Shown: positions 21,478-42,599, numbered from the stretch's first letter. The stretch is DNA of 64,000 nt from a bacterium CG_4_9_14_3_um_filter_65_15 (GCA_002790835.1 PFVX01000024.1:7167-71166); one strand, 5' to 3'. Translations and numbers: made by a program. Notes: generated by a model not told the origin, from the sequence alone.

Positions 21478-22137
21478 TCAGGGAGCGTCGGTCACCGAAA
21501 TATGCAGCGTGTCGCGGCGCACGACCGCCCAGAACGGATAGTTGACGGCCAGGGTCACGTCGTATTCCCCGCTCTCGGTGAACCGGAACCGGGGAGCACG
21601 GCCCGTGAATACAGTTCCGGCCGCATCGTTCATGCGCCATTTGAAGAAGATCTTGGCGTAGTTCCCGGCGTTGTCCGGGTCGATGTCGCAGGATTCGGCG
21701 CGCAGGTCGAACTGGACCGTATCGGCAGTCGTCACGCTCCCGGCCGGGAAGTTGCTGCTGGCTTCGACCAACAGGCTGTCGGCAAGAACCCGGACCGGCA
21801 TGCTGGAACTGGCGGAGTTGCCGTCGGGGTCGGTGGCGGTCACGACCACGTTGAAATCACCGGCATCGGCGTAGGTATTGAAGGCGCGGGAAGTGGTGCC
21901 GATATGGCCGTCCCCGAAATTCCAGGAAATTTCCAGGTTGTTGGTGCCGCCGGTTGCGTTTCCGGTCTCGTTGCCGCCTGAAACCGCAACGTACCCCTCG
22001 ATCTGCAGGGGCATGACCCCGCAGAGGGGGGTGAGCGTCAGCCGGGTGATGGCGGGCTTCGTGTCTTGTTTGCATCCGGAAACAAAGAAAAGGACCAGCA
22101 GGGCTGCCGGTATCAAGAGCAGGCAGAAGCGTTTCAT
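21478..22137 (-). CDS. PKD-domain lipoprotein (secreted, function unknown)
   Basis: MKRFCLLLIPAALLVLFFVSGC is a signal peptide with a lipobox Cys. NFGDG...VVVTATDPDGNS is PKD-domain-like. The track ORF extends to 22290, but the ATG at 22137 with a signal peptide is the likely start. It is the last gene of the lptF-lptG transcription unit. Confidence 0.65.
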   Translation of the reverse strand: MKRFCLLLIPAALLVLFFVSGCKQDTKPAITRLTLTPLCGVMPLQIEGYVAVSGGNETGNATGGTNNLEISWNFGDGHIGTTSRAFNTYADAGDFNVVVTATDPDGNSASSSMPVRVLADSLLVEASSNFPAGSVTTADTVQFDLRAESCDIDPDNAGNYAKIFFKWRMNDAAGTVFTGRAPRFRFTESGEYDVTLAVNYPFWAVVRRDTLHISVTDAP

Positions 22138-22286
22138 GAGTTCGGTATTCTCCCTGTGGGGTGGCGGGAACCCGGAGCCCACCCGGGCACTGCCCGGAAT
22201 GACTCCACCGGCCTGGTCGCATAAGTTTACGTAGCTAGGATAGCCTGCACAAGTCGTCTCGTCAAATCCGGTTAGCAAGGGGTGAA

Positions 22287-23360
22287 TCATCGTCGGGCAC
22301 GACCGAACAGCACCAGGAACAGCCCGAGAAAGAAGACATTCCCGGACCAGGCCGCCAGCAGGGGGGGCACGGCTCCGGTGTGACCCAGACTCTTGCCGAA
22401 ATTCATGAACATGTAGTAGCCGAAACTCACCAGCAGGGTCAGGCCGAACCCCGAGGCGACGGTGGTCTTGCGGGGGCTCGAGGCCAGGATGATCCCCATC
22501 AGTGTCACGATGATGTTCACGAAGGGAAAGGCCAGGTTGAATTGCACGTCAACGATGCTTTTTCGCGGATCGCCGCCCGTTTGGCGGACCAGCCGAATAT
22601 GATCCTGCAACTGCCGGATGGTCATGTCCTCCTGGGGGATCCGGTCGCGGTAGAACCCCTTGGGGTCGATGGTCAGGTCCGAGGCGATCATCTTGTCGAG
22701 ATGGTCGATGGTCTCCTTGTCCTCGCTGAATCGCCGCCGGGTCACTCCCGACAGGCTCCAGGTGGCGCCGGTCCACGTGGCCCGATCGGCGGCGATGATT
22801 TCGGTGACGCGTGACCCCTGCCGGGTCACGATGCGCATCCCCTGCAGGATGCCCGTGTTGGGGTCGAATTTGTGCGCGTAGTACATCCGGCCGTCGGGTC
22901 CGCGCAGGGCGATGTCCCGGGTGGGATTGATGGTGTCGGCCTGTTTGTGGATCTCCACTTCCCAGACCTTGCGTTCCAGGATGTTCGCCCGGGGCAGGAC
23001 GTATTCGTGCCAGCTGAGGGAAAACCCGGTCAGCAGGATCGCCCCGATCAGCAGGGGACGGGCGACCTGCATCAGCGAGCATCCCGCCGCCATCAGGGCG
23101 GTCAGTTCCAGGTAGCGGGCCATGGAGCCGATGGTGAACAGGACCGACATCAAAACGGCGATGGGCATGACCGTGTCGACGATCCAGGCGCCCTTGTACA
23201 GGTAATAGCGCAGGACCATGGAGGCGGTGGCGGAGTTGTCCACGAAGCTGCCCATGTGATCCAGCAGGTCCATGATGGTGAACAGGAGCAGGGCACCCAG
23301 CAGCGTGTAGAGCAGGTTGCGCAGGAAGGAGCTCAAAAGATAACGGTGAATGATCGTCAT
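22287..23360 (-). CDS. lptG: LPS export ABC transporter permease (LptF/LptG, YjgP/YjgQ family)
   Basis: 357 aa; the N-terminal MTIIHRYLLSSFLRNLL is the classic LptF/G start. Topology is six TMs with a periplasmic beta-jellyroll insert. The F versus G assignment is by gene order only. Confidence 0.75.
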   Translation of the reverse strand: MTIIHRYLLSSFLRNLLYTLLGALLLFTIMDLLDHMGSFVDNSATASMVLRYYLYKGAWIVDTVMPIAVLMSVLFTIGSMARYLELTALMAAGCSLMQVARPLLIGAILLTGFSLSWHEYVLPRANILERKVWEVEIHKQADTINPTRDIALRGPDGRMYYAHKFDPNTGILQGMRIVTRQGSRVTEIIAADRATWTGATWSLSGVTRRRFSEDKETIDHLDKMIASDLTIDPKGFYRDRIPQEDMTIRQLQDHIRLVRQTGGDPRKSIVDVQFNLAFPFVNIIVTLMGIILASSPRKTTVASGFGLTLLVSFGYYMFMNFGKSLGHTGAVPPLLAAWSGNVFFLGLFLVLFGRARR

Positions 23361-24773
23361 GCGGTGGAGCCTCGGTCCGACACGGTGGCAGAGGGCTTCA
23401 CCCGGGGTTTGTGCGTGACGCTCAGGATGCTGGATTCCTTGACGGTGCGCATGAAGACCGGGATGCCCACGGCCAGCAGGAAGAAGTTGGCGCTCCACAT
23501 GGCCAGGAACGGGTCCAGACGGCCCCGATCCGCCATCTTTTCACCTCCGACCAGGAAAAGATAATATACCAGGAAAACCCCGATGGCCAAAGAGACGCTC
23601 ACTCCCCGGCCGCTGCGGCTGGAGGAAACGGCCATGGGCACGCCCAGGAGGGTGAACACCATGCAGGCAAAGGGAATGGCGAACTTCTTGTGGAATTCCA
23701 CCAGGTAGCGGTTCGCCTTGACGACGTACGAATCCAGCACGCGCTCCTGGAAACTGCATTGCTCGGCCGTGCGCTGGACCTTGGTCCTGGTTTCCCGGAA
23801 GCGTTCGGCCATGGCCAATTCGCGGCGGTCCGGCTCGAGTGAGATCCTGCCGCCCAGGACCAGGTCACGTTTTTTTGGCTGGAGCAGGTTCCACTCCCAG
23901 TTGAGGAAGCTGCCGGTGAACTCGGAGATCCGGCTGTGGATGTCCGCCTGACGAACTCTTTCCTTGTCGGCCGCCTGCAAGAGCTCCCCGAGGTCCATCT
24001 CCCGGTCGCCCTTGGCCTTGCGGTCGGTTTTCTGCATGTCCTGTTCGGCGTTGCCGATCGTCCGTGTCAGCTGGGAGAACCTGATGACCTGGTACTTGGC
24101 GGGATCCTCGGCGTCCTGTTGCTCGTGGGTTTCCCCGTTGTGGAGGTTGAGGATCAGGGCGTTGTCCTCATGGTCGTTGATGACGGTGCCCCATTCGGCG
24201 AAGGTCATGCGGGGGGAAATGTCCCCGGGATCTTCCTTCTCGATGATGGTGACGTCCTCGATCCGCCCGGTCTTGTCGTCCTTGGTCGCGACGAAGATGG
24301 TCAACTTGTCGTTGAGATCGTTGAATTGCTGGGGCTGGATTTCCAGCATGGGTCGTTTCTGGCTGATATCGCGCAGGAGGTTGGCCAGGGTGTGGTTCAT
24401 GTCCGGGAAAACGAAGTGGTTATAGGCCGTCATGGCCACCGTGATCACCGCGGCGGTGGCCAGCAGGGGGCGCAATACCGACCACAAGCTGATACCGCTG
24501 GCCTTCATGGCTGTAATTTCGTTGTCGGCAGCAAGTTGACCGACCCCCATCAAGACCCCGACGAGCACCGACATTGGTATGGATAATGCAAACGTGTGGG
24601 GAAGGCTCAGCAGCAGCACCTCTGTGGCGATGGGAAATGCTACCCCTTTGGTGACAAAGAGATCGACATAGTTGAACAGGGTATCTATCATCAGCAAGAA
24701 TGTGATGACCGAGAGCCCGAAGAAGAAGGGGCCGCGGCAGGTGAGGATCAAGTGCTTGTTTAGCAAGCGCATA
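23357..24773 (-). CDS. lptF: LPS export ABC transporter permease (LptF/LptG, YjgP/YjgQ family) with an enlarged periplasmic domain
   Basis: 472 aa; MRLLNKHLILTCRGPFFFGLSVITFLLM is the LptF/G N-terminus, and the C-terminal TMs are present. It overlaps the downstream paralogue by 4 bp. Confidence 0.75.
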
Positions 24774-24989
24774 TGAGCTTCGAGACCTTCCCCGGATCCG
24801 CCACTCCATCCATCTGGACGGTCCCCGGTATTCCTGCTGTGTTGACCCGGAGCCCTGCCCGCGTGCCGCGCCGGTGCTCCCATCCGGTTCACGTTACCGT
24901 GGCCGGTCTTCCCCGAGGGGGCGGCCGGGATGGGAAACCCTGATCGCACCCGGAGTCAGAATGACCATTTCCGGGGACGAATTCAAGTT

Positions 24990-27900
24990 ATGATCCGGCC
25001 CCATTCCCCCACCGGCCGCGGGCCAGGGAGTGTCCAGGTGAATCCGCGCCCGCCCAGCAGAGCTCCGCGGCAGTCGACAGGCCCAAGGTGGTACCTGGGC
25101 CTTTTGCTGTTGCTGGGAGTGTTGTGGGGGACTGCGGACAGGGCCCTGGCCGATCCAAACTACGAGGGGCCGCTTCTCTACGGTCTCGATCCGGTGATCC
25201 GGTCCACCGACAACCCGCGGTTGCTGGGAGTCGACCGTCTGTTGCTCCTGCGCAGGATGAAGTCCCTCGGTATCGACCCCCAGCGAACCGGGATTACCCG
25301 ACCCACCCTGGAAAGTTCCCTGCGCCGCGTGTGGGACGACCGTTCCCGGGTCGACCTCCAGCGTCGGGAAACCGTGCTGGAATACAACGGCCTCTTCGGG
25401 CTGATGTTCGAGTTCCGCTATCCGACCTTCATGTTCTTCTACCAGGAGGCGGTGGCCCTTCCCGGCGGTCTCACCTACTATCCGCCGCGCCCCGTGCGGG
25501 ATCCCGCGGTTCAGGTCTTCGTTGACGATCTCCACCAGGGCATGATGCGGCGCCAGACGGTGGATCGTCGGCTGACCCGGATGGATGACCTGGCCGTGGC
25601 GGGCAAGGGACGTCAGAACGGACAGAACGACGGCCTGATCAACCTGACCATCCCCATCAAGCTGCCCCACACCCTGGAAAAGATCATCGGCCGGGGGGAG
25701 AAGACCCGCATCAAGATCAGCGGTCGCGAACACTTCGCCCTCAACGGCGAGAGCACGGTGATCAAACCCTTCGTGGGCAACGAACGCATGTCCAACCAGT
25801 CGCTGTTCCCCTCGCTGGACATGAAGCAGGAACTGCAGATCAACCTGTCGGGAACCATCGGCGAGAAGATCATCATCGAGGTCGACCACAACAGCGAGGC
25901 CATCGGGCCCGAGGCCACCAAGATCAAACTGATGTACCAGGGGCTCGAGGACGAGGTCATCAAGACCATCGAGACCGGCGACGTGGGGCTGACCCTGCCG
26001 GGGAGCCAGTTGCTGGGTTACAGCTCCAACAAGTCGGGCCTGTTCGGCTTCAAGGTCACCGGTCAGGTGGGCCGGACCGACTTCACCTTCGTGACCTCCA
26101 AGCAGAAGTCCCAGTCCTCGTCCAAGACCTTCAACGCCAAGGGAGGCCAGGAGGAAGACCGGATCATCAACGCCTCCGACTACCTTAACAACCGCTTCTT
26201 CAAGCTGGATCTGCCGGATAGCGAACCCCAGGGTCGCCGGCAGGGGGAGACCATCGTTTACGGATCCGTGAAGATCTTCAAGTGGCTGGGAACCGGGATT
26301 CGCGGCGAGGGAGAAGTCGCCGTGGCGGCTTATTTCGACAGCTTGGGTGTTCATGCCTGGGACAGCATCGATTTCGGCCATCCGGAGCCCATCACCGAGG
26401 TCGGACCACGCTGGCAGGAAATCACGGATTTTGAAGCCTTGCTGGATGCTGCGGGAAGCCTGATCGCCATCGACATGGGCCGAAGCTATCTGGATGAAGA
26501 CGTGCTGGCGGTGATCTATGACGTTGTCGACGGGAATGGCGTCATCACCTCGGTGGGCGACAAACCCGGTGTGGATGAACCGGTTCAGGAGTTGCCCAAT
26601 GATGAGGGAACATTCTATCGGATGAAATTGCTCAAGGTCCCCCACAACAAGAGCAATTCCCGGCTGTTCAATTACGTCCTGCGGAACATCTACCCCCTGG
26701 GCGGGTCGAATATCGACGCCTCGACCTTCGATCTGCGCATCGAATACGAAAAACCCGGTTTGGACCAACCCCAGCAGGATGTGAACGGGCTGGATTTCTT
26801 CCGCATCTTCGGCCTGGACCAGGAAAACGCCCAGGGAGAGCCGGGGCACGACAACGTCGTGGACTTTCACGACCCGTACCTGTTCGACCTGGAACGGGGA
26901 CTGCTCAAGTTCCCCCTGGATTTCCCCACCCCCTTCGCCGCGGACAGCACCCAGTACGAGGCCTATGCCGACGACTCGGAGAAATTCAAATGGGAAACCA
27001 GCACCCTCAAGGATAACCTGGCGCCCGAATTCTACAACTACGACAAGACCATCCCACCCTCCCGCTTTGGGGAATACAGCCGCTTCCACTTCGTGGTCCA
27101 CCACGCTTCGGCCAGCAGCAACATCAGCCTGGGCACCTCCAGCATCGAGGAAGGCAGCGAGAGCGTGGTCGTCAACGGGCGCACCCTGACCCGCGGCACC
27201 GACTATTCCATCGACTACACCTTCGGCGAGATCCAGCTCCTGGGCGACGCGGCCAACCTGACTCCGGACAGCCAGATCTCGGTGAACTACCAGTACGCGC
27301 CCTTCATCGGCGGGGGCAAGACCAGTCTCACCGGCCTCAACCTGGGCTACGACCTGGGACGCAACGCCAAGATGTCCACAACCTGGCTCTACCAGAGCGA
27401 GGCGATCGTGGGGGAGAAGGCCAAGCTGGGCGAGGAGCCCAGCCATACCCTGGTGGGGAACGTCAACCTCAACACCACCCTCAAACCCTATCTGCTGACC
27501 CACGTGGCCAATTTCCTGAGTCGGCACGATTCCGACCGCGAGAGTTCCATCCAGCTCTCCGGTGAAATGGCCGTCAGCCTGCCCAACCCCAACACCAAGG
27601 GCCAGGCCTATCTGGAGGACTTCGAGGGCGTCGATTCCTCCAACTACGTCTCCCTGACGCGGGCGTCCTGGTCCTGGGCCAGCGTGCCCTTCCTGGGCGA
27701 AGCCTACCAGGACACCTCCCTGGATTTCCGCACTTTCGCGCCGGAGAAACGGGTCACCACCCGCTGGTTCCTGCCCCGGGACCGGGTGCTGCGCCGCTAC
27801 CTGAATCCCAACCTGATCAAGGAGGAGCGGGACGACACCCAGCAGGTCATGGACCTCTATCTGCGGGCCGACGAGGGTTGGGAAGGCGATAACTGGGGCG

Positions 27901-30900
27901 GGATCATGCGGGGCATCAGCCGCACGGGTCTGGACCTTTCCAAATCCCAGTTCGTGGAGATCTGGGTCAACGACGGGATCCCCGAAAAGGAATTCCGTTC
28001 CGGTCGCCTGCACATCGACTTCGGGTACATCAACGAGGACGGCTTCTGGACCCGGGATCTCGACAGCAGCCTGGTCATCGGCAATTTTGATCAGGAGGAT
28101 GGCATCACTTATAAACCGGGCCCTCCCCCCACGGGCACTCCCCCCGACGGCATATTTTCCGCGGGTGACGAGGATATCGGCCTGGACGGCCAAGGGGAGA
28201 ACGGGCCCCAGGGCTACAGCGCGGAATATGAGATCGGCGGCGATTCGCCTTTCCCTCGTATCAACGGCACCGCCCGCAACAGCCGCGAGGACACCGAGGA
28301 TCTGAACCGCAACGCGCGGATGGATCGCAACGACGGGTATTTCACCACCGTTATCGACCTCCAGGATACCCCGGCTCTGATCGACGTGGATTACGACTTC
28401 GATTCCGCTGACGTGGCTGAACTCAAGGACCAGAACATCGCCTGGCGCAAGTACCGCATTCCCCTCGGAGCGGTGGACAAGGTGTCTGTCGGGTCCACCG
28501 CGGACATCCGATCCATCACCCACGCCCGGATCTGGTACGAGAACGATACGCAGGAAGCTCCCGATGCCGTGCGCCTCCAGCTGTCGGACTTCAAATTCCT
28601 GGGCAGCCGCTGGGAACGCGAAGGCGTGCGCCGGATCAGCGACGAGGCGCTGCTGGACGACATCGAGCGCCGGGGCGCCCAGTTCTTCCTGGGAGAGGTC
28701 AACAACAAGGAGAATCCCGACTACGTCCCGCCCTTCGCCGTGCACGAGATCAACAGCATCCCGGAAAAGGAACAGGCCCTGGTGCTGGATTTCGACGACC
28801 TGCAGCGGGGACAGATGATCCGGACCAGCAAGGTGGTCTCCCCCCGGGGAGACGACTACACCTTCTACAAGGATCTGTCCTGGTACTTCTCCAACCCCTC
28901 CCAGCAGAATGTTGACCTGGATCTTTTCTTCCGCGTGGGGTCGGACTCGCTGAATTTCTACGAGGTCAACTACCGCTTCGCCCAATCGACCTTCAAGGTG
29001 GGCTGGCAGCAGTTCACGGTGAACCTGGCCGAACTTTCCAACATCAAGAACGGCGAGATCGACATCGAGGGCGTGGCCCACGGAGAGGTCCCCGATGTCA
29101 ACACCGGCGAACTCTATTCCGCCCGCGTCGTCGGCCGGCCGGACCTGCGCCACATCAGGCGCTACTACTTCGGAGTGATGAACCAGGTCCTCAGCGAGGG
29201 AGCGCAGGGCTATTTCTACTTCAACGATGTCCGATTGCTGGACGTGAAGAAGGAATCGGGCATGGCCCAGAGGGCCGGTGTGCGTCTGAACATGGCCGAC
29301 ATCATCAAGGTGGATTTCGACTGGAAGCACACGGACTCCGAATTCCACGGCCTGGATGAACGCGCCGGTTCGGGGGTGGATTTTCGGGACTGGAATGTGG
29401 CCACGAATTTCAAGGTCGATGATTTCGTGCCCTTGCTGGGGTTCCAGCTTCCGGTGAACCTGAGCCGTCGCCGCACCGTCAACCGCCCGAAGTACGAGGT
29501 GAACAGCGACATCGAGATTCTCGAGGCATCCACGGCCGATGCCATGTCCACCATCGATGCCCAGGAGCGGTTCTCCACCCGTCTGCGCCACCCGCCGAGC
29601 AAGGCCGTCCTCGCCCGCTACCTAGTGGACCCCTGGACCCTTCAGGTCAGCGGATCGCGCACGACCTACGACGGCCCTCTGGCCGAAAGGCGGGGGAAGA
29701 GCCTGCAGGGCTCACTCAACTACGACCTGCGGATCAGCGGGCGCCACAGCCTGGGCGACTACCCGGTGCTGGCCTCCGTGCCCTTGTTGCGGGGGCTGTC
29801 ACTGGTGCCCACCAAGGTGACCCTGGGGGCCAACTTCACCAACCGTTGGAACGCCACCACGACTCTCAACGAAGACGGCGTGGTGACCCAGCGTTCCCAG
29901 TCGCAGAGCCGGCCGGGGGTTCTCAGCGCCAACCTGGACTACAATCCCTCCCTGATCCTCGATCTCACCTTGGCGGCGAAATCGGACCGGGACCTCCTGC
30001 GCGAAAAGCGGGCCTTCGGAGTCAACGTCGGCGAGGAGAATCAACGCAGTTACGATATGCGCATGACCGTCAAGACTCCTCGCGCCAAGGATCTGCCCGA
30101 CGGCCCCCTGTTCATGCCCCTGCGGTCGGCGGCCCGCTTGGCCAACAAGCTGCGGCCCTCGGTCCAGTTCAACGGCAAATTCGTCGACCAGCACGGCCCC
30201 GGGGTGCGCCAGACCGCGGGTCAGACCAATGTGCGCAACATCAACAATTCGGGGAATTGGGACTTCCGATTCGATGTGCCTCTCGGCGACTGGGTCAAGA
30301 GCGTATTCCCGGAACACCGCGTAACGAGCCAGGAGAGGCAACGGTTGATCAACGAGCAGCGTCGCCTGGAAAAGCGTGCGCTCCGGCAGGGTGGGTCCCC
30401 TCCCGGTCAAGGCCAACCCGAACAGGATATCGACGAGTCCGGATTGACCCCCGAGGAACGTCAGCGCCGGGAAGAAGAGCGGCTCCTGGAAGGGGCGCAA
30501 CAGCGGCAAGAGGAGGAGGCTGACCAGGGCTTGGCCGAGCCGGAGGAAGCTCCGCCCCCGACGGAGGGCGAGCGCCTCAGCCCCATGATTCTCATCAACC
30601 CTTTCCTGGATCTGCTGCGGGGCACCGCGCCGGTGAAGATCTCCACTTCGCGGCAACAGAACAGCACCTACAGCCAGTTGCGGACCGGAGCCCCCTTCTG
30701 GTACCAGACGGGTATTGAAAATGTTCTGGATGCGGCCGACAGCCTGTATGCCTCCAGGAGCTACCAGGACCGCAAGACGCTCAATCTCTCGAGCAGTTCG
30801 AAAATCACGCGGAACATCGGCTTGGACACCAAGTACACCGTCACCAGGTCGGTGCGGGATCAGGTCGGCAGCACGACCCGGAACAAGCAGGTCGATTGGC

Positions 30901-31514
30901 CGGACTTTTCCCTATCGGTCAGCGGTCTGGAGAAATGGGGGGTTTTCGGGGGCATCGCCAGCGACCCCAATGCGGGCAGGTTCCGTTCCGCGAACTTCAA
31001 TATCAGCTACAAGAAATCCGAAACGGTGAACAACTACACCGATACCTATTACAACCCCACCGTCAACAAGGTGATTTCGCCCCGCCTGACCTTCAATTTC
31101 CGGAGTGGTTTGTCGGCAACGGCCAATGCCACGGTGACCAGCAACGATGCTCAGTCCAACGGTGTGTTGACGTCCCTGCGCCGCCAACGCATCGGCTTGC
31201 AACTGAGGCACCAGTTCCGGGCCCAGAGGCTGCTGGCGAAACTGGGGCTGTACCGGCCCGGAAACAATCCCTCCATCACCATGGATGTGGATATCTCCTA
31301 TCAGCGCTCCCGCACCGAACGTTTCACTCCGGGTAGCGTGGTTTCCGCCCCCACGGGCCAGTCCAGTATCAGCCTGCGCCCCCGCTTCAGTTATCAGATT
31401 TCCCGGAGTCTCAGCGGCGCCTTCAACATGGGTTTTTCGAAGTCCAAGGATATCGCCACCGACCGGACAACGACTTCTCTCGGCATGGGAGTGGAGATGA
31501 CCTTTGTATTCTAG
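24990..31514 (+). CDS. sprA: T9SS outer-membrane translocon SprA/Sov (giant beta-barrel, 'cell surface protein SprA')
   Basis: Size is about 2,175 aa (SprA-like). It has an N-terminal signal peptide (RWYLGLLLLLGVLWGTADRALA), a long beta-rich sequence with G/T/S/N/Y periodicity, and a C-terminal aromatic residue (…GMGVEMTFVF) typical of OM barrels. The N-terminal region resembles the SprA N-domain (..SGTIGEKI.IEVDHNS..). The start is uncertain between 24930 and about 25035. Confidence 0.7.
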   Translation: MIRPHSPTGRGPGSVQVNPRPPSRAPRQSTGPRWYLGLLLLLGVLWGTADRALADPNYEGPLLYGLDPVIRSTDNPRLLGVDRLLLLRRMKSLGIDPQRTGITRPTLESSLRRVWDDRSRVDLQRRETVLEYNGLFGLMFEFRYPTFMFFYQEAVALPGGLTYYPPRPVRDPAVQVFVDDLHQGMMRRQTVDRRLTRMDDLAVAGKGRQNGQNDGLINLTIPIKLPHTLEKIIGRGEKTRIKISGREHFALNGESTVIKPFVGNERMSNQSLFPSLDMKQELQINLSGTIGEKIIIEVDHNSEAIGPEATKIKLMYQGLEDEVIKTIETGDVGLTLPGSQLLGYSSNKSGLFGFKVTGQVGRTDFTFVTSKQKSQSSSKTFNAKGGQEEDRIINASDYLNNRFFKLDLPDSEPQGRRQGETIVYGSVKIFKWLGTGIRGEGEVAVAAYFDSLGVHAWDSIDFGHPEPITEVGPRWQEITDFEALLDAAGSLIAIDMGRSYLDEDVLAVIYDVVDGNGVITSVGDKPGVDEPVQELPNDEGTFYRMKLLKVPHNKSNSRLFNYVLRNIYPLGGSNIDASTFDLRIEYEKPGLDQPQQDVNGLDFFRIFGLDQENAQGEPGHDNVVDFHDPYLFDLERGLLKFPLDFPTPFAADSTQYEAYADDSEKFKWETSTLKDNLAPEFYNYDKTIPPSRFGEYSRFHFVVHHASASSNISLGTSSIEEGSESVVVNGRTLTRGTDYSIDYTFGEIQLLGDAANLTPDSQISVNYQYAPFIGGGKTSLTGLNLGYDLGRNAKMSTTWLYQSEAIVGEKAKLGEEPSHTLVGNVNLNTTLKPYLLTHVANFLSRHDSDRESSIQLSGEMAVSLPNPNTKGQAYLEDFEGVDSSNYVSLTRASWSWASVPFLGEAYQDTSLDFRTFAPEKRVTTRWFLPRDRVLRRYLNPNLIKEERDDTQQVMDLYLRADEGWEGDNWGGIMRGISRTGLDLSKSQFVEIWVNDGIPEKEFRSGRLHIDFGYINEDGFWTRDLDSSLVIGNFDQEDGITYKPGPPPTGTPPDGIFSAGDEDIGLDGQGENGPQGYSAEYEIGGDSPFPRINGTARNSREDTEDLNRNARMDRNDGYFTTVIDLQDTPALIDVDYDFDSADVAELKDQNIAWRKYRIPLGAVDKVSVGSTADIRSITHARIWYENDTQEAPDAVRLQLSDFKFLGSRWEREGVRRISDEALLDDIERRGAQFFLGEVNNKENPDYVPPFAVHEINSIPEKEQALVLDFDDLQRGQMIRTSKVVSPRGDDYTFYKDLSWYFSNPSQQNVDLDLFFRVGSDSLNFYEVNYRFAQSTFKVGWQQFTVNLAELSNIKNGEIDIEGVAHGEVPDVNTGELYSARVVGRPDLRHIRRYYFGVMNQVLSEGAQGYFYFNDVRLLDVKKESGMAQRAGVRLNMADIIKVDFDWKHTDSEFHGLDERAGSGVDFRDWNVATNFKVDDFVPLLGFQLPVNLSRRRTVNRPKYEVNSDIEILEASTADAMSTIDAQERFSTRLRHPPSKAVLARYLVDPWTLQVSGSRTTYDGPLAERRGKSLQGSLNYDLRISGRHSLGDYPVLASVPLLRGLSLVPTKVTLGANFTNRWNATTTLNEDGVVTQRSQSQSRPGVLSANLDYNPSLILDLTLAAKSDRDLLREKRAFGVNVGEENQRSYDMRMTVKTPRAKDLPDGPLFMPLRSAARLANKLRPSVQFNGKFVDQHGPGVRQTAGQTNVRNINNSGNWDFRFDVPLGDWVKSVFPEHRVTSQERQRLINEQRRLEKRALRQGGSPPGQGQPEQDIDESGLTPEERQRREEERLLEGAQQRQEEEADQGLAEPEEAPPPTEGERLSPMILINPFLDLLRGTAPVKISTSRQQNSTYSQLRTGAPFWYQTGIENVLDAADSLYASRSYQDRKTLNLSSSSKITRNIGLDTKYTVTRSVRDQVGSTTRNKQVDWPDFSLSVSGLEKWGVFGGIASDPNAGRFRSANFNISYKKSETVNNYTDTYYNPTVNKVISPRLTFNFRSGLSATANATVTSNDAQSNGVLTSLRRQRIGLQLRHQFRAQRLLAKLGLYRPGNNPSITMDVDISYQRSRTERFTPGSVVSAPTGQSSISLRPRFSYQISRSLSGAFNMGFSKSKDIATDRTTTSLGMGVEMTFVF

Positions 31515-32463
31515 ATTGCGAACCTGGATCTGCAGGGCCCTGGTCGGTTTGATCGGGGTGGCCTTTGCATGGTCGACTTTCGCCTACGCGACGTCGGACA
31601 GCGGGGCGGTTCCCGTATTTTCCGGGAAACGCGCCATGGAACTCGTTCATCTCCAGTGCGACCTGGGTCCGCGGGTGCCGGGATCGCCGGCCAACCGCGC
31701 CCTGCAGGACACCATCCTGGCTCATGCGGAGGAATTGGGGTTCGAGGCTCGACGGGGTTGTTTCCGCGCCACGAATCCCCTGACCGGCGAAGAGATGGAT
31801 GTCTGCAATTTCGTGGTCATCCTGCCGGGCACGGGAGCCGGGCCTTCCCTGTGGTTGGGGGTCCACTTCGATTCCCGACCCCTGGCCGACCAGGACCCCG
31901 ATCCCCGGATCCGGACTCAGCCCGTCCCCGGGGCCAACGACGGCGCCAGCGGTGTGGCCGTCCTGTGGCACCTCATGGAAATGGCGGGGGCCAGCCCTCC
32001 GGCGCGCACCGTCGTGTTGATGTTCCTGGACGGCGAAGACTCCGGCCGGGAAGGGGATCCGGAGAGCTTCTGCCTGGGCAGCGCGCACCTGGCGGCCGGG
32101 TGGGGTGGGTTCAATAGTCTGTTGCCTGCCGCGAGGCCCGAGGGTGTGATCATCCTGGATATGGTGGGCGATGCCGATCTGGAAATCACCCAGGAATCCC
32201 TATCCTTGAAGTATGCGCCGGGTTGGACCTCACGGGTGTTCGAGAGGGCCGCCGCGCTTGGTCTGCCGGCGTTCCAGGCGCGCGGTGGTCGGGCTGTTTT
32301 CGATGACCACATTCCGTTTTTGCGCCGCGGCCTTCCCGCGGTGGATCTCATCGATTTCGACTACTCGCCCTGGCATACCGGCGGGGATGTTCCGAGTGCC
32401 TGCAGCGCTGGGAGTCTCGCTCAATCGGGCGCCCTGCTCACGGACCTGATCTACAATCCGTAA
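31504..32463 (+). CDS. Glutaminyl-peptide cyclotransferase-like protein (M28-fold, mono-zinc QC type), membrane-anchored
   Basis: HFDSR...PGANDGASGVAVL...FLDGEDSG matches the M28 zinc-site layout, but with N-D where aminopeptidases carry D-D, as in animal-type/Bacteroidetes glutaminyl cyclases. It has an N-terminal hydrophobic anchor. The TTG start at 31504 or 31516 overlaps or abuts the sprA stop. Confidence 0.65.
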   Translation: MYSRLRTWICRALVGLIGVAFAWSTFAYATSDSGAVPVFSGKRAMELVHLQCDLGPRVPGSPANRALQDTILAHAEELGFEARRGCFRATNPLTGEEMDVCNFVVILPGTGAGPSLWLGVHFDSRPLADQDPDPRIRTQPVPGANDGASGVAVLWHLMEMAGASPPARTVVLMFLDGEDSGREGDPESFCLGSAHLAAGWGGFNSLLPAARPEGVIILDMVGDADLEITQESLSLKYAPGWTSRVFERAAALGLPAFQARGGRAVFDDHIPFLRRGLPAVDLIDFDYSPWHTGGDVPSACSAGSLAQSGALLTDLIYNP

Positions 32464-32570
32464 GCCATCCGAGGGGGAGGATGATTCGCACTAAATTCCC
32501 TGCGCGGCCTGCCGATATGTCGGGGGACCGTTATCGCGCCCAGACCTTGGAATGTGCAAAGGAGCAGGGA

Positions 32571-33107
32571 ATGATCACCACCTGCACGGAGTGCCAGGCT
32601 CGTTATCAACTGGAGGACCAGAAGGTTCCCCGCCGTGTCATCAAGGTCCGCTGCCCTGACTGCAGCGGTATCTTCTCTCTGGATGGGACCGCTCGCGCCG
32701 AGGCGGAAGCTCCCCTGGTGGTCGAGCACGGAGGGCGCGATTTGACGCCGCAGCCGGTTGCTCCCGCGCCCCAGCTGTCCGGGGAACCCGTTCGGGCCCA
32801 GGCTCCGTCTGCCGGGGTTGCCGTCCTGGAAGAAACCGGCGTCGCCCCCGCAGCGAGTCGTGGCCGCCGCCGCCGCAGCAAGGAAGAGATGTACGCCCGC
32901 GCCCTGGTGTCGGATATCCTCGTCTACAACCGGGATGCCCGCGACCAGGCCCTCAAGGACGGGACCCTGGTCGAAGCCCTGGGGCAGGAGATCAAGAAGA
33001 GCTGGGAACTCTACAAGGAAAAGGTCACCCCGGAGGTGGCCAACGGCACCGATCATTTCAAGAAAGCCCTCAACGAGATCCTGGCCGAGGGCGCCGAGCT
33101 GTTCTGA
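32571..33107 (+). CDS. MJ0042-family zinc-ribbon protein with a C-terminal helical domain (function unknown)
   Basis: MITTCTECQARYQLEDQKVPRRVIKVRCPDCSGIF carries two CxxC pairs in the MJ0042-type zinc-finger layout. It is followed by a Pro/Ala-rich linker and a conserved-looking C-terminal EEMYARALVSDILVYNRDARDQALKDG... domain. ATG 32571 with RBS aaggagcaggga; the track ORF starts upstream at 32481. Confidence 0.6.
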   Translation: MITTCTECQARYQLEDQKVPRRVIKVRCPDCSGIFSLDGTARAEAEAPLVVEHGGRDLTPQPVAPAPQLSGEPVRAQAPSAGVAVLEETGVAPAASRGRRRRSKEEMYARALVSDILVYNRDARDQALKDGTLVEALGQEIKKSWELYKEKVTPEVANGTDHFKKALNEILAEGAELF

Positions 33108-33186
33108 TCCCGGGCGCCCCGACTTCGAGGCGTCCCTGTCCATGGCGAGACCCGGTCCTCGACCGGGTCTCCGCTTTTTGGGTTTT

Positions 33187-33630: not shown

Positions 33631-33892
33631 CTTGGAACTCCCGATCCTGTGCGGTCCTGTCGTTTCCCGTATGGGGGGGGATTGTCCCGAAATCCCCCAT
33701 CGGGGAGCATTGCGCCCGATTTCCGGGGAGGGTGTTGCAAATTGCTTGCCCAATCCGGTCGTACCCCCCGAATTCCCTTGAGTTTGTCAATACACCGGAA
33801 AATTTTCCATGGCATACCGATTGCACCCAAGGGGTGATCATGCCGCTGACCGTTCCTTTTGCCGGGGGTTGGATCCCGGAGGAGAGCTGCCC

Positions 33893-34720
33893 ATGTCGGT
33901 TCAGAATTTGACCGCCACCGCCTGCTGCCGTCTTCTGTATTACGGCCAGGCCGGAGTGGGCAAACGGGAGAATCTGCGGCTGATCCACCAGTTCGTGCCA
34001 CCGGAATCGCGCCTGTCGATCGCGGTGGAGGATCCCGAACGTCAGATCGGCTTCAACCTGCCCCAGCCGGGACAATCGTCGCGCCAGGTCCTGGTGCAGG
34101 CAGTGGATGTGGGGAAGGAGCGTTATCACGCCGCCGGGATGACGTCGCGGTTGCCCTTCGACGGCGTGGTCTTCGTCATCAACTCCGGAGTTTCCCAACT
34201 CGACCAATCGCTGGCCGCCTTCGAATCCCTCAAGATGTTCCTGGATTCGTGGGGGATGGACCTCATGCGGATCCCGGTGGTCCTTCAGTACAACCGCACC
34301 GGAAGTAACGAGGAAACGATCCCCGTGGATCGGCTGGAGAGCCTGCTCAATCCTTGGGGACTGCTCTCCTTCCCCGCCGCCACATTGCGCGGCGAAGGGG
34401 TCCGTGAAACCCTCAAGGCCGTCCTCGGCTTGGCGGTCAAGCACCAGGAGGAGCAGGCCGTCATGATGCCCAATTTCAACCCCCGGCACTCCGAGGCCCC
34501 ACCGGCGGAACCGGAGCCTCCGACGGAATCGAAGCTGCAACTGGAGTACGGCCCGGCGTTACCCGGCGCCGAGATGGAGGAATCCACCCGTCTGCGCAGT
34601 GAGCAGATCTTCAACGACCTGCGCCCTCCGCTGGTGATCCCGGTCAAGATTCCCCGTCGTCTGGTCAGCGGCCTCAAGGGACCGCTACGGGTCTTCCTGG
34701 AAATCGAATTCGAGGATTAG
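33893..34720 (+). CDS. MglA-like Ras-family small GTPase with degenerate nucleotide-binding motifs and an about 90-aa Pro/Glu-rich C-terminal extension
   Basis: Block-wise similarity to Myxococcus MglA: CCRLLYYGQAGVGKRENLRLI vs KIVYYGPGLCGKTTNLQYI; PFDGVVFVINSG vs GVDGVVFVADSQ; IPVVLQYNRTGS vs IPYVIQYNKRDL; GEGVRETLKAVLGLAV vs GVGVFDTLKAVAKLVL. The P-loop Ser/Thr is Arg, the switch-II Gln is Lys, and NKxD is NRTG. ATG 33893 with RBS ggaggagag. Confidence 0.7.
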   Translation: MSVQNLTATACCRLLYYGQAGVGKRENLRLIHQFVPPESRLSIAVEDPERQIGFNLPQPGQSSRQVLVQAVDVGKERYHAAGMTSRLPFDGVVFVINSGVSQLDQSLAAFESLKMFLDSWGMDLMRIPVVLQYNRTGSNEETIPVDRLESLLNPWGLLSFPAATLRGEGVRETLKAVLGLAVKHQEEQAVMMPNFNPRHSEAPPAEPEPPTESKLQLEYGPALPGAEMEESTRLRSEQIFNDLRPPLVIPVKIPRRLVSGLKGPLRVFLEIEFED

Positions 34721-34755
34721 CCGCCTGACTGTTGACCTGTTTGCGATCCTACCCT

Positions 34756-35637
34756 ATGGTCCCGACCATGGACACTCCAAGCACGACATCAGGGAAATCC
34801 GCCATCGGGCCGGATACCTTGGCGGACCAGCTGGCCGCCGGGCTCCGCCTGGAACGAGAGGGCCGGTGCGCGGCCGCCCTCGATCTTTACCACCACCTCC
34901 TGAGCGACCACCCCGACGAATGCCGCCTGCATTATCGGGCCGGCTGCGCGGCGCTCAAGATGGGTGAAGCCGCAACGGCCCAATCCTTTTTCCAGACCGC
35001 GGTGGCGCAGGATCCCGACAATCCCCGCTACCTGACGAATCTCGGGGTGGCTCTCGATCGCCTGGGCCGGCGCGAGGACGCCGTGAGGCTCTACAAACGG
35101 ACGGCCATGCTGGATGGGGGCACCGTGGTGGCTCACCATAATTTGGGTGCGATCTATGCCGAACAGGGGCGCATGGACGAAGCCTTGCGTTCGTTCCGGG
35201 CCGCCATCGCCCTGGAACCGGACGCCGAGGGCTATCACAACCTGGGACTCGTCCACTTCCGGGTCGATGATTTCGTTGCCGCCCTGGAGAATTTCCGCAA
35301 CGCCGTGGCGTGTGACTCCGGCTACGCGGTGGGCCACTATTACGTTGGCCTGTGCCTGATGAAAACGGGGAACTACATCGCCGCCATGGAAGCTTTCCAT
35401 AGAGCCTGGGGCCTGGATTCACGCCTCGCGCGGGTTCCCTACCACCTGGGATGCTGCCTGCACAAGCTGCAGCGGCATGAGGAGGCCCGCAGCCGCCTCG
35501 AACAGGCCCTGGACGCCTTCCCCGAGGATGGCCGTCTCCACTACCAGCTGGCCCTGACCTGTGACGCCTTGGGATTGCACCCCGAAGCCCGGATTCACTA
35601 CGGCATGGCCACGGGACGCAACAACCCCAACGAATGA
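34756..35637 (+). CDS. Tetratricopeptide-repeat (TPR) protein
   Basis: About 290 aa with at least six TPR units (e.g. AHHNLGAIYAEQGRMDEALRSFRAAIALEPD; GHYYVGLCLMKTGNYIAAMEAFHRAW). It lies immediately downstream of the MglA-like gene. Start is uncertain (TTG 34732, ATG 34756 or ATG 34768). Confidence 0.7.
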   Translation: MVPTMDTPSTTSGKSAIGPDTLADQLAAGLRLEREGRCAAALDLYHHLLSDHPDECRLHYRAGCAALKMGEAATAQSFFQTAVAQDPDNPRYLTNLGVALDRLGRREDAVRLYKRTAMLDGGTVVAHHNLGAIYAEQGRMDEALRSFRAAIALEPDAEGYHNLGLVHFRVDDFVAALENFRNAVACDSGYAVGHYYVGLCLMKTGNYIAAMEAFHRAWGLDSRLARVPYHLGCCLHKLQRHEEARSRLEQALDAFPEDGRLHYQLALTCDALGLHPEARIHYGMATGRNNPNE

Positions 35638-41948: not shown

Positions 41949-42599
41949 TTATGCCCGGTCTTCAGGAAATTCCCGGGGTACGACGGAGCCGGCGGTCGCT
42001 TCACGGACCATGGCCAAAAATTTTGGATACTGGGAGTGGGGCAGCCAGATCCGCCAGCTGATCTGCTCGGTGTAGGATTCGTCCCGGATCCGGCCGCGGC
42101 ATTGTTGCAGCAGATAGTCCAGGGTCTTGCGCTGGTCATAGGGGAAATCCAGGGCCAGGTCGCGGCCGAGCCGAACCACGCGTGTGCCCGCTTGCTCGAG
42201 GACCGTACCGGCGGCTTCACCATAGGCCCGGGAAAGTCCTCCGGTGCCCAACTTGATACCGCCGAAGTACCGCACCACCACGACCACCGCGTCGCTTACG
42301 TCGACCTTGCGCAGGGCCGCCAGAATGGGTTCGCCCGCCGTGCCTGAAGGTTCGCCGGCATCGCTGCGGTTCTCGGTGATCGCCGTGCCGTGGCCCAGGC
42401 GCCAGCCGAAGCAGACATGGCGGGCGTCATGGTAGCGCTTTTCCTGGACCTCGACCCAGGAGCGGACGGCGGTCGCCTCGCAGACCGGGGCGACGAGTCC
42501 GATGAAACGGGAACGTTTGATCTTCACCTCGCAAGCGGCTTCGCCGGCGACGGTGAGGAAGAAATCTTCCGGTGGAAGGGGAGGTCGGGGGTCGCACAT
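41949..42599 (-). CDS. yigZ: YigZ/IMPACT family protein (UPF0029)
   Basis: KRSRFIGLVAPV...DAGEPSGTAGEPIL...VVVVVRYFGGIKLGTGGL are YigZ N-domain motifs; 216 aa. Confidence 0.8.
   Translation of the reverse strand: MCDPRPPLPPEDFFLTVAGEAACEVKIKRSRFIGLVAPVCEATAVRSWVEVQEKRYHDARHVCFGWRLGHGTAITENRSDAGEPSGTAGEPILAALRKVDVSDAVVVVVRYFGGIKLGTGGLSRAYGEAAGTVLEQAGTRVVRLGRDLALDFPYDQRKTLDYLLQQCRGRIRDESYTEQISWRIWLPHSQYPKFLAMVREATAGSVVPREFPEDRA

Follow-up and report, generated by a model that had tools for sequence, protein, structure and literature searches.

Type II glutaminyl cyclases (QCs) are already known from bacteria, and that of Porphyromonas gingivalis (PgQC) is a drug target. The Q-rule, which concerns Gln at the first position (+1) after the signal peptide, has been described as specific to Bacteroidetes, and high Q-values have been found to co-occur phylogenetically with a type IX secretion system (T9SS); a mechanistic link between the two was argued against in the same study, which contains no gene-neighborhood analysis, the words "operon" and "neighbo(u)r" being absent (Bochtler et al., 2018; PMC5837995). 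Among all substrates of signal peptidase I, about 77% are modified by PgQC (PMC10653852). In the present study, a stretch of 64,000 nucleotides from the bacterium CG_4_9_14_3_um_filter_65_15 (GCA_002790835.1, PFVX01000024.1:7167-71166), referred to as the window and numbered from its first letter, was analyzed, and a QC-like gene was found that overlaps the 3' end of sprA, the gene for the T9SS outer-membrane translocon. The enzyme itself is ordinary, and the new part is the sprA-QC context outside Bacteroidota. On balance, we favor the explanation that the gene encodes a zinc-dependent type II QC, coupled to sprA, whose clients are mainly T9SS proteins.

The sprA-QC gene pair and its distribution

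The sprA (sov) gene occupies 24930..31514 on the + strand as the longest open reading frame (ORF; 2194 aa). For its product, the NCBIfam equivalog TIGR04189 ("T9SS outer membrane translocon Sov/SprA") gives 1.4e-150, with 503 bits against a cutoff of 200, and SprA_N (PF14349) gives 2.7e-18. The predicted signal peptide ends in ...DRALA/DPNYEG (the slash marks cleavage), a position that suggests a true start near 25038, and the C-terminus is ...TFVF. The QC gene, at 31504..32463 (+), is among the ORFs listed for the window, has a TTG start, and encodes an M28-fold protein of 319 aa that is predicted to be exported. Its GC content by codon position (0.67/0.52/0.76) resembles that of the neighboring genes, and it is not a chance ORF because it matches Pfam Peptidase_M28 (PF04389) at 1.8e-22 and PgQC at 1.2e-35. 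In the public record, the protein is "hypothetical protein CO151_03530" of bacterium CG_4_9_14_3_um_filter_65_15.

The two genes share 11 nt (31504..31514, +), from the QC start TTG to the sprA stop TAG (31512-31514), and a Shine-Dalgarno-like GGAG is read within the final sprA codons at 31493..31496 (+), 7 nt 5' of the TTG. These positions agree with a first-pass annotation, which was made from the sequence alone and placed the gene at 31504-32463 with its start either 11 bp before the sprA stop or immediately past it. It also proposed co-transcription, and the QC gene is almost certainly co-transcribed with sprA, in view of the overlap, the GGAG at -7 and a terminator that is found only beyond the next gene. 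The presence of both TTG and GGAG within the last sprA codons implies that the translation of the two genes is probably coupled.

The distribution of the pair was studied in 80 loci, which a single scan of about 185,000 species genomes had returned when queried with an aligned set of close homologues, and two loci, L081 (on a 3.84-Mb contig) and L082, were added by exact protein identity. Retrieval used the patterns GANDGASG[VT] and AH[FY]D[TS]RP, so that genes of PgQC type (GADDGGSG) are under-sampled, and taxon labels are those of the records. By tblastn with the window SprA, sprA was found directly upstream of QC on the same strand in 38/80 loci, and a hidden Markov model (HMM) of SprA C-termini detected four further linked loci with short upstream flanks, giving 42/80; upstream sequence was too short for judging the linkage in five of the 80. 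According to precomputed Pfam annotation, L081 and L082 have the order PKD - lptG - lptF, and divergently SprA_N - Peptidase_M28 - Zn_ribbon_4. The linked loci belong to about nine lineages of the Fibrobacterota-Chlorobiota-Bacteroidota (FCB) group: Krumholzibacteriota-like, Eisenbacteria, Gemmatimonadota, KSB1, Zixibacteria, Marinimicrobia, Calditrichota, Ignavibacteria, and Zhuqueibacter. The distance from the sprA stop to the QC start, where assignable, is mostly between -26 and +15 nt, with -11, -4, -1, and +1 recurring. Genes downstream of QC vary between phyla: tblastn of the window genes located there gave no matches in the 80 loci, and the closer L081 and L082 do have Zn_ribbon_4. The genomic link between a QC and the translocon gene, which the first-pass annotation had put forward for the window, is strengthened by its occurrence in 42/80 loci and in L081 and L082. 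Full-text literature searching, with subscription-only papers outside its coverage, found no paper reporting sprA-QC gene linkage, and the conserved operon outside Bacteroidota is apparently unreported.

The QC gene is unlinked to sprA in the loci of Bacteroidota (L046, L062), Cloacimonadota, and Fibrobacteria. A neighbor-joining (NJ) tree is too star-like to settle whether the linkage is ancestral. It is a tentative idea, possible though doubtful in our judgment, that the sprA-QC operon represents the ancestral FCB state and that the genome-wide Q-rule of Bacteroidota (together with Ignavibacteria and Marinimicrobia) is a later generalization, after which the gene was free to leave the operon. 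Upstream neighbors other than sprA are still secretion-related in several loci, namely secA in L038 (6981-9530), a beta-helix protein with a Por_Secre_tail C-terminal domain (CTD) in L032 (40-2343), and a CTD-like (FlgD_ig) protein in L011 (1-2454).

As for the start codon, a second in-frame TTG is present at 31516, 1 nt past the sprA stop, and is the start used by NCBI (315 aa; P0001). The start at 31504 is the likelier one, since the relatives L002 and L004 offer no alternative: the TTG at -11 is their sole start upstream of the signal-peptide core. The same TTG is also found in L001, as one of two possible starts, and in L082, where an independent gene caller picked it for QC. Conservation of this TTG was considered as proof of the start and is weakened as such, because the codon sits in the constrained codons of the SprA C-terminal ...TFVF. 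It is the Phe-Val codons of this terminus (window 31500-31514) that create the TTG, and relatives with SprA ending in ...TFTF (L003, L081) are without it and have QC starting just past the stop. The overlap of the two genes therefore hinges on a single residue in the C-terminal motif of the SprA beta-barrel.

Enzyme class of the product

The zinc ligands of PgQC are Asp149, Asp183, and His299 (Taudte et al., PMC7948796). Directly after the first ligand Asp, aminopeptidases consistently have Asn or Asp, animal QCs have Ser, and PgQC has Gly, and a residue other than Asn/Asp at this place has been connected with the loss of a second zinc site; Trp298 and Phe294 of PgQC correspond in aminopeptidases to Tyr and to a small aliphatic residue (PMC7948796). 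In a sequence search of PDB with the window protein, the best matches were PgQC (1.2e-35), the QC of Fimbriiglobus ruber (FrQC, 7d1b; 3e-32), and TfQC (9e-29), followed by PdQC, BvuQC, BtQC, and then animal QCs at about 1e-8 to 1e-12, while the nearest aminopeptidase, YwaD (6hc6), reached only 4e-3. An AlphaFold2 (AF2) model was built on 29 homologues, with a predicted local distance difference test (pLDDT) score of 93.6. Foldseek of this model against PDB gave QCs for all of the top 50, including 7d1b from a planctomycete and 7d18, a QC of Acidobacteriales, with template modeling (TM) scores of 0.78-0.82 to bacterial QCs and no aminopeptidase among these 50. An NCBIfam profile scan of the protein gave no match. 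A poorly resolved NJ tree places it together with PgQC, TfQC, and FrQC and separates it from human QC (HsQC) and from the Streptomyces (SGAP) and Vibrio/Aeromonas (AAP) aminopeptidases.

The active-site positions were compared in a residue alignment that included human QC, SGAP, and AAP sequences (25/25 known residue numbers agreed), and in 81 family sequences. All three motifs named in the first-pass annotation are present: HFDSR (residues 121-125), GANDGASG (143-150), and DGEDSG (176-181). His121 (31864..31866, +) corresponds to human His140 and AAP His97; it is the His of the second metal site that is kept by QCs and is found in 81/81. In Asn145-Asp146-Gly147 (31936..31944, +), Asp146 is aligned with the zinc ligands PgAsp149 and HsAsp159 and with the bridging Asp of aminopeptidases (SGAP D97, AAP D117). 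The following Gly147 is PgG150, HsS160, SGAP N98, and AAP D118; it is a hallmark of bacterial QCs and is Gly in 77/81. The pair at 32035..32040 (+) combines the general base Glu178 (HsGlu201, PgE182) with the zinc ligand Asp179 (PgAsp183, HsGlu202), where aminopeptidases have Glu-Glu (SGAP E131-E132, AAP E151-E152). Asp219 (32158..32160, +) matches HsAsp248 and PgAsp218, a catalytic residue of the hydrogen-bond network, as well as SGAP D160 and AAP D179. The first residue of Asp267-Asp268-His269 (32302..32310, +) is QC-specific, corresponding to HsAsp305 and PgD267 and to Ser in SGAP (S203) and AAP (S228). In Trp290-His291 (32371..32376, +), His291 is aligned with the zinc ligand His (HsHis330; PgHis299, although PgQC, a fragment here, is unaligned over W290-H291) and Trp290 with HsTrp329, while Tyr or Ile precedes the His in aminopeptidases. 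Tyr287 provides an aromatic residue at the position of HsPhe325.

The protein is QC-type at every position named in PMC7948796, and it is very probably a new member of the type II QCs already known from bacteria. The first-pass annotation had called it a QC-like M28 protein, and the search values, the Foldseek result, and the QC-specific residues all bear this out. An ordinary co-catalytic di-zinc M28 aminopeptidase, which would trim the N-termini of periplasmic or secreted proteins, is very improbable. The Pfam Peptidase_M28 match, the annotation of relatives as "M28 family peptidase", and the presence of all five classical metal positions (His121, Asp146, Asp179, Asp219, His291) fit such an enzyme. 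These five positions, however, are non-discriminating because proven QCs share them; at the discriminating positions, Gly147, Asp267, and Trp290 are found instead of the aminopeptidase-type Asn/Asp, Ser, and Tyr/aliphatic residues, and the nearest solved aminopeptidase, at 4e-3, compares with 1e-35 for QCs and is absent from the Foldseek top 50.

The argument by which the first-pass annotation had reached the QC assignment was a different one, namely that Asn-Asp in place of the Asp-Asp pair marks mono-zinc enzymes of QC type. This does not hold: PgQC and TfQC have Asp-Asp (GADDGGSG), and the di-zinc SGAP has Asn-Asp. At the Asn145 position, human QC has Thr, F. ruber QC and SGAP both have Asn, and AAP has Asp, and the pair was rejected as a mono-zinc marker because both residue types occur in QCs and in di-zinc aminopeptidases. 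Judged from the aligned sequences, Asn145 is a clade feature and is not diagnostic; it is invariant in the 29 closest homologues and also in the 80 loci, there partly because the retrieval pattern contained Asn. The alignment to PgQC, human QC, and M28 aminopeptidases that had been proposed as a check thus supports the QC class, by Gly147, Asp267, and Trp290, and removes Asn-Asp as the discriminator. It had also been held that a full ligand set (HxD, D, EE, D, H) would mean an ordinary aminopeptidase, and this too fails, as PgQC, human QC, and the window protein all have the five positions. A full set was rejected as a refuting test, since true QCs retain it and can bind a second zinc; according to PMC13424184, which cites Huang et al. 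(2021), human Golgi QC can do so at Asp186-Asp269-His168. A practical consequence is that proteins labeled "M28 family peptidase" or "hypothetical" can be recognized as QCs by Gly after the ligand Asp, Asp-Asp-His, and Trp-His, and not by Asn-Asp.

The zinc-ligand positions Asp146, Asp179, and His291 are kept in 80-81/81 family sequences, Glu178, Asp219, and Asp267 are invariant in 81/81, and the QC-type positions as a whole are kept in 77-81/81 members from many phyla and in the 29 closest homologues. This conservation speaks for a functional enzyme and against a degenerate fold. SprA binds periplasmic partner proteins, and expression of the present gene is tightly coupled to sprA; both facts would suit a catalytically irrelevant structural partner of SprA with a QC fold, like the plug and PPI (peptidyl-prolyl isomerase) proteins in Flavobacterium. 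We regard such a partner as the least probable of the explanations considered, because retention of catalytic and metal-binding residues in 80-81/81 across phyla points to selection for chemistry and because a lipobox, as in PgQC with its anchor in the inner membrane, is present in most of the linked homologues.

The window protein itself is without a lipobox, unlike most sprA-linked homologues, and its clade has a signal or anchor of signal peptidase I type in place of one. Its residues 1-29 (31504..31590, +), MYSRLRTWICRALVGLIGVAFAWSTFAYA, followed by TSD, form a predicted signal peptide or anchor, with cleavage at AYA/T by a heuristic predictor and a helix at 3-27 in the AF2 model. By analogy with its family, the protein would be exported by Sec and then, on the periplasmic side, be set free or stay anchored through its hydrophobic N-terminal segment, and one Zn2+ would be held by Asp146, Asp179, and His291. 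Glu178 may act as the proton shuttle, hydrogen-bonded in a network that includes Asp219 and Asp267; a carboxylic-acid network of this kind, HsE201-D248-D305, was reportedly described by Huang in 2021. The expected reaction would be the cyclization to pyroglutamate (pGlu) of a Gln that becomes N-terminal on cleavage by signal peptidase I.

Putative substrates and role

As the second cistron of a putative sprA-QC-Zn-ribbon unit, delimited from the sequence and consensus scans, the QC would most likely have as its main clients proteins that use or build the T9SS, because about nine FCB-group lineages retain sprA and QC as a pair, mostly with the two genes adjoining or overlapping. We give modest preference to a functional tie between QC and T9SS, as the conserved and tightly coupled gene order suggests. 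The pair in about nine non-Bacteroidota lineages constitutes independent comparative-genomic evidence for a tie between pGlu and type IX secretion, and it reopens a question that was answered negatively from P. gingivalis data alone. Lineages in which this can be approached free of the confounding genome-wide Q-rule are Marinimicrobia, Eisenbacteria, Zixibacteria, Ignavibacteria, and Krumholzibacteriota.

Evidence on cargo comes from loci other than those of the source lineage. A home-built CTD profile, for which a Por_Secre_tail domain confirmed by Pfam served as the seed, detected 28 CTD proteins in other loci, 24 of them with a readable N-terminus, and in 14/24, all from other QC-bearing FCB loci, Gln directly follows the signal peptide. 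This agrees with the idea that T9SS cargo is a target of the QC in linked lineages and says nothing direct on the source organism. One such cargo, a conserved Marinimicrobia-type protein of about 555 aa with a T9SS CTD and Gln after its signal peptide, is encoded about 1 kb downstream of the sprA-linked QC (L009 11681-13327, L015 8332-10017, L022 4296-5981, L041 4181-5854, L050 6077-7753, L065 8816-10477, L069 5536-7143, L071 10546-12240, L073 11739-13433) and is a candidate model substrate. Mature SprA also starts with Gln in Eisenbacteria L034, KSB1 L048, and four loci of the Marinimicrobia clade.

Several observations weigh against a role centered on T9SS. Homologues with the same active site, unlinked and of 35-42% identity, are present in Poribacteria, Armatimonadota, Chloroflexota, Planctomycetota, and Sumerlaeota; since these phyla are not known for T9SS, the QC enzyme does not need this system. 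In P. gingivalis, experiments argued against control of type IX secretion by pGlu (PMC5837995, PMC10653852), and its QC gene lies away from sov, heading its own PG2157-2159 operon (PMC10653852). With the CTD HMM, no T9SS CTD cargo was found in the window or in L001-L004. Of the 14 Gln-starting cargo proteins, nine are orthologues of one Marinimicrobia protein, and by independent families the count becomes about 6/16. Few exported proteins are encoded in the window, and about two of the six credible substrates of signal peptidase I found there start with Gln, which is above a typical background in a tiny sample, and mature SprA starts with Asp-Pro in 6/7 sequences of the window clade. The two Gln+1 proteins are a DsbD-like protein (TDA/Q) and an outer-membrane protein (OMP)-like ORF at 42390 (GSA/Q; VQA/Q in L081), and the non-Gln substrates are SprA (ALA/D), QC (AYA/T), and a DUF4139 protein (ILA/A); an FG-GAP protein is without a clear cleavage site.

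Much of this would suit a general periplasmic QC with clients not specific to T9SS, for which the position beside sprA would be a historical accident or result from regulation shared with genes of outer-membrane biogenesis (lptFG, kds, lpx). The window is a region of lipopolysaccharide (LPS) and outer-membrane biogenesis, its two Gln+1 proteins are not T9SS cargo, identical-active-site homologues occur in phyla not known for T9SS, and the gene is unlinked in Bacteroidota, Cloacimonadota, and Fibrobacteria. Moreover, PgQC acts on about 77% of signal peptidase I substrates, with pGlu found not to control type IX secretion, and it is hence not the cargo-specific enzyme that the first-pass annotation had taken it to be but one acting on most such substrates (PMC5837995, PMC10653852). 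We nevertheless regard a general QC, the main rival, as the less likely reading. In 44 loci of about nine lineages, QC adjoins or overlaps sprA while every other downstream gene varies, and such an order is seldom preserved between phyla unless the genes are functionally connected. The lptFG genes are divergent from sprA and conserved beside it in fewer loci (16) than QC, and the CTD cargo of linked lineages is enriched for Gln+1. A QC serving mainly T9SS proteins is preferred for these reasons.

The QC family is not restricted to T9SS organisms, and solved QCs also come from a planctomycete and an acidobacterium. QCs with Asn-Asp-Gly and a complete, conserved active site are common outside the phyla known for T9SS, in Poribacteria (L012, L018, L029, L037, L051, L059), Armatimonadota (L047, L052, L058, L060, L064, L067, L075), Chloroflexota (L053, L068), and Pirellulaceae (L080). 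Rates of Gln+1 were estimated with home-made signal-peptide predictors, the first version of which gave too few signal peptides and the second many false positives (CTP synthase, UvrB, and LptG segments). Rough rates by this crude method, not used as proof, were 8% for the window clade, 25% for other linked FCB, 50% for Marinimicrobia, and 21% for non-FCB. The very rough counts of 9/29 in Armatimonadota and 3/17 in Poribacteria hint at Q-rule-like behavior outside FCB.

Neighboring genes and comparison with known systems

The gene following QC, 17 nt past its stop at 32481..33107 (+), encodes a Zn_ribbon_4 protein with an MJ0042-type finger (PF13717, 8e-12). It is probably the third gene of the sprA-QC transcription unit and holds the same position after sprA-M28 in L081 and L082; its product is probably cytoplasmic because no signal peptide is predicted. 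An intrinsic-terminator-like hairpin with an 11-bp GC-rich stem and a T run was found by consensus scan at 33147..33181 (+), with the hairpin placed at 33147-33171; it is the first strong terminator-like element on this strand after sprA begins and would end the sprA-QC-Zn-ribbon unit. At the other end, a weak sigma-70-like promoter match, TCGACA-17-TATCAT (10/12), lies 5' of sprA at 24663..24691 (+); since promoter-like matches in the region are no more frequent than the shuffled expectation, it is a candidate only.

Farther downstream, an ORF at 33809-34720 (+) has a P-loop-like motif, YYGQAGVGKRENL, and no Pfam match, and is followed by a TPR protein at 34732-35637 (+); this pair is kept in L081 and L082. 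Upstream, lptG and lptF (22287..24949, -; PF03739 at 6e-76 and 2e-85) are divergent from sprA. The same divergent arrangement is found in 16 loci from several phyla (L001-L004, L006, L008, L019, L024, L033, L034, L048, L055, L072, L074, L076, L077) and in L081 and L082, and it forms a second conserved neighborhood that ties the T9SS translocon gene to LPS export genes. The region upstream of sprA, about 4455-24949, is a supercluster of LPS and outer-membrane biogenesis genes with housekeeping genes: kdsB, pyrG, kdsC-like HAD, kdsD, lpxL (lipid A acyltransferase), lptB, rpoN, hprK, ptsI, metK, and lptFG. A PKD-domain lipoprotein (lipobox VSGC; 21478-22290, -) is encoded downstream of lptG and is kept in L002-L004, L081, and L082; no T9SS CTD was recognized in it. 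By domain annotation of the window proteins, no T9SS gene besides sprA was found in the 64 kb.

Among the described systems, the M28 aminopeptidases (AAP, SGAP, and Bacillus YwaD) share with the window protein the M28 fold and the five metal-ligand positions, and they differ in that Asn/Asp follows the bridging Asp, Ser and Tyr/Ile take the places of Asp267 and Trp290, respectively, and the similarity is only 4e-3. Human and other animal QCs (QPCT, QPCTL) have the same fold, with D159/E202/H330 corresponding to D146/D179/H291, the E201-D248-D305 network, W329, and a near-identical segment DDHIPFLRRG; their identity is about 23-25%, Ser follows the ligand Asp, Glu is the second ligand, and they belong to the eukaryotic secretory pathway.

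The F. ruber QC, 7d1b (3e-32, TM 0.80), has Asn-Asp-Gly (SANDGTAG) and a DFDY-x-x-WH segment in common with the window protein, so that the Asn-Asp version does occur in a protein deposited as a QC, and the Acidobacteriales QC (7d18) is grouped with it as a close structural relative. It differs in coming from a planctomycete, a phylum not known for T9SS, in having Glu-Glu rather than Glu-Asp at the second ligand, and in having no sprA context.

PgQC (PG2157; 6qql, 7cje), considered together with TfQC, PdQC, and BtQC, is the best sequence match, with about 31% identity and a TM score of about 0.8. It shares the extracytoplasmic location, the Asp, Asp, His zinc ligands including the bacterial-specific Asp at human Glu202, and the Asp-Gly, Glu, Asp, and Asp-Asp-His motifs. 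The window protein has Asn-Asp for its Asp-Asp, Phe189 for PgTrp193, and Val171 for PgAsp175, and a signal or anchor of signal peptidase I type without a lipobox, whereas PgQC is a lipoprotein. The PgQC gene is the first of PG2157-2159, while the gene in the window is the cistron after sprA, and PgQC serves a genome-wide Q-rule that is not evident in the small sample for the present lineage.

The Bacteroidetes Q-rule system (Bochtler 2018; Szczesniak 2023) likewise combines a QC with Sec and signal peptidase I substrates in a T9SS-bearing lineage. Gln+1 is not in the majority in the window sample, and no mechanistic or genomic link was found in that system, whereas here the QC gene is coupled to sprA, and this outside Bacteroidota.

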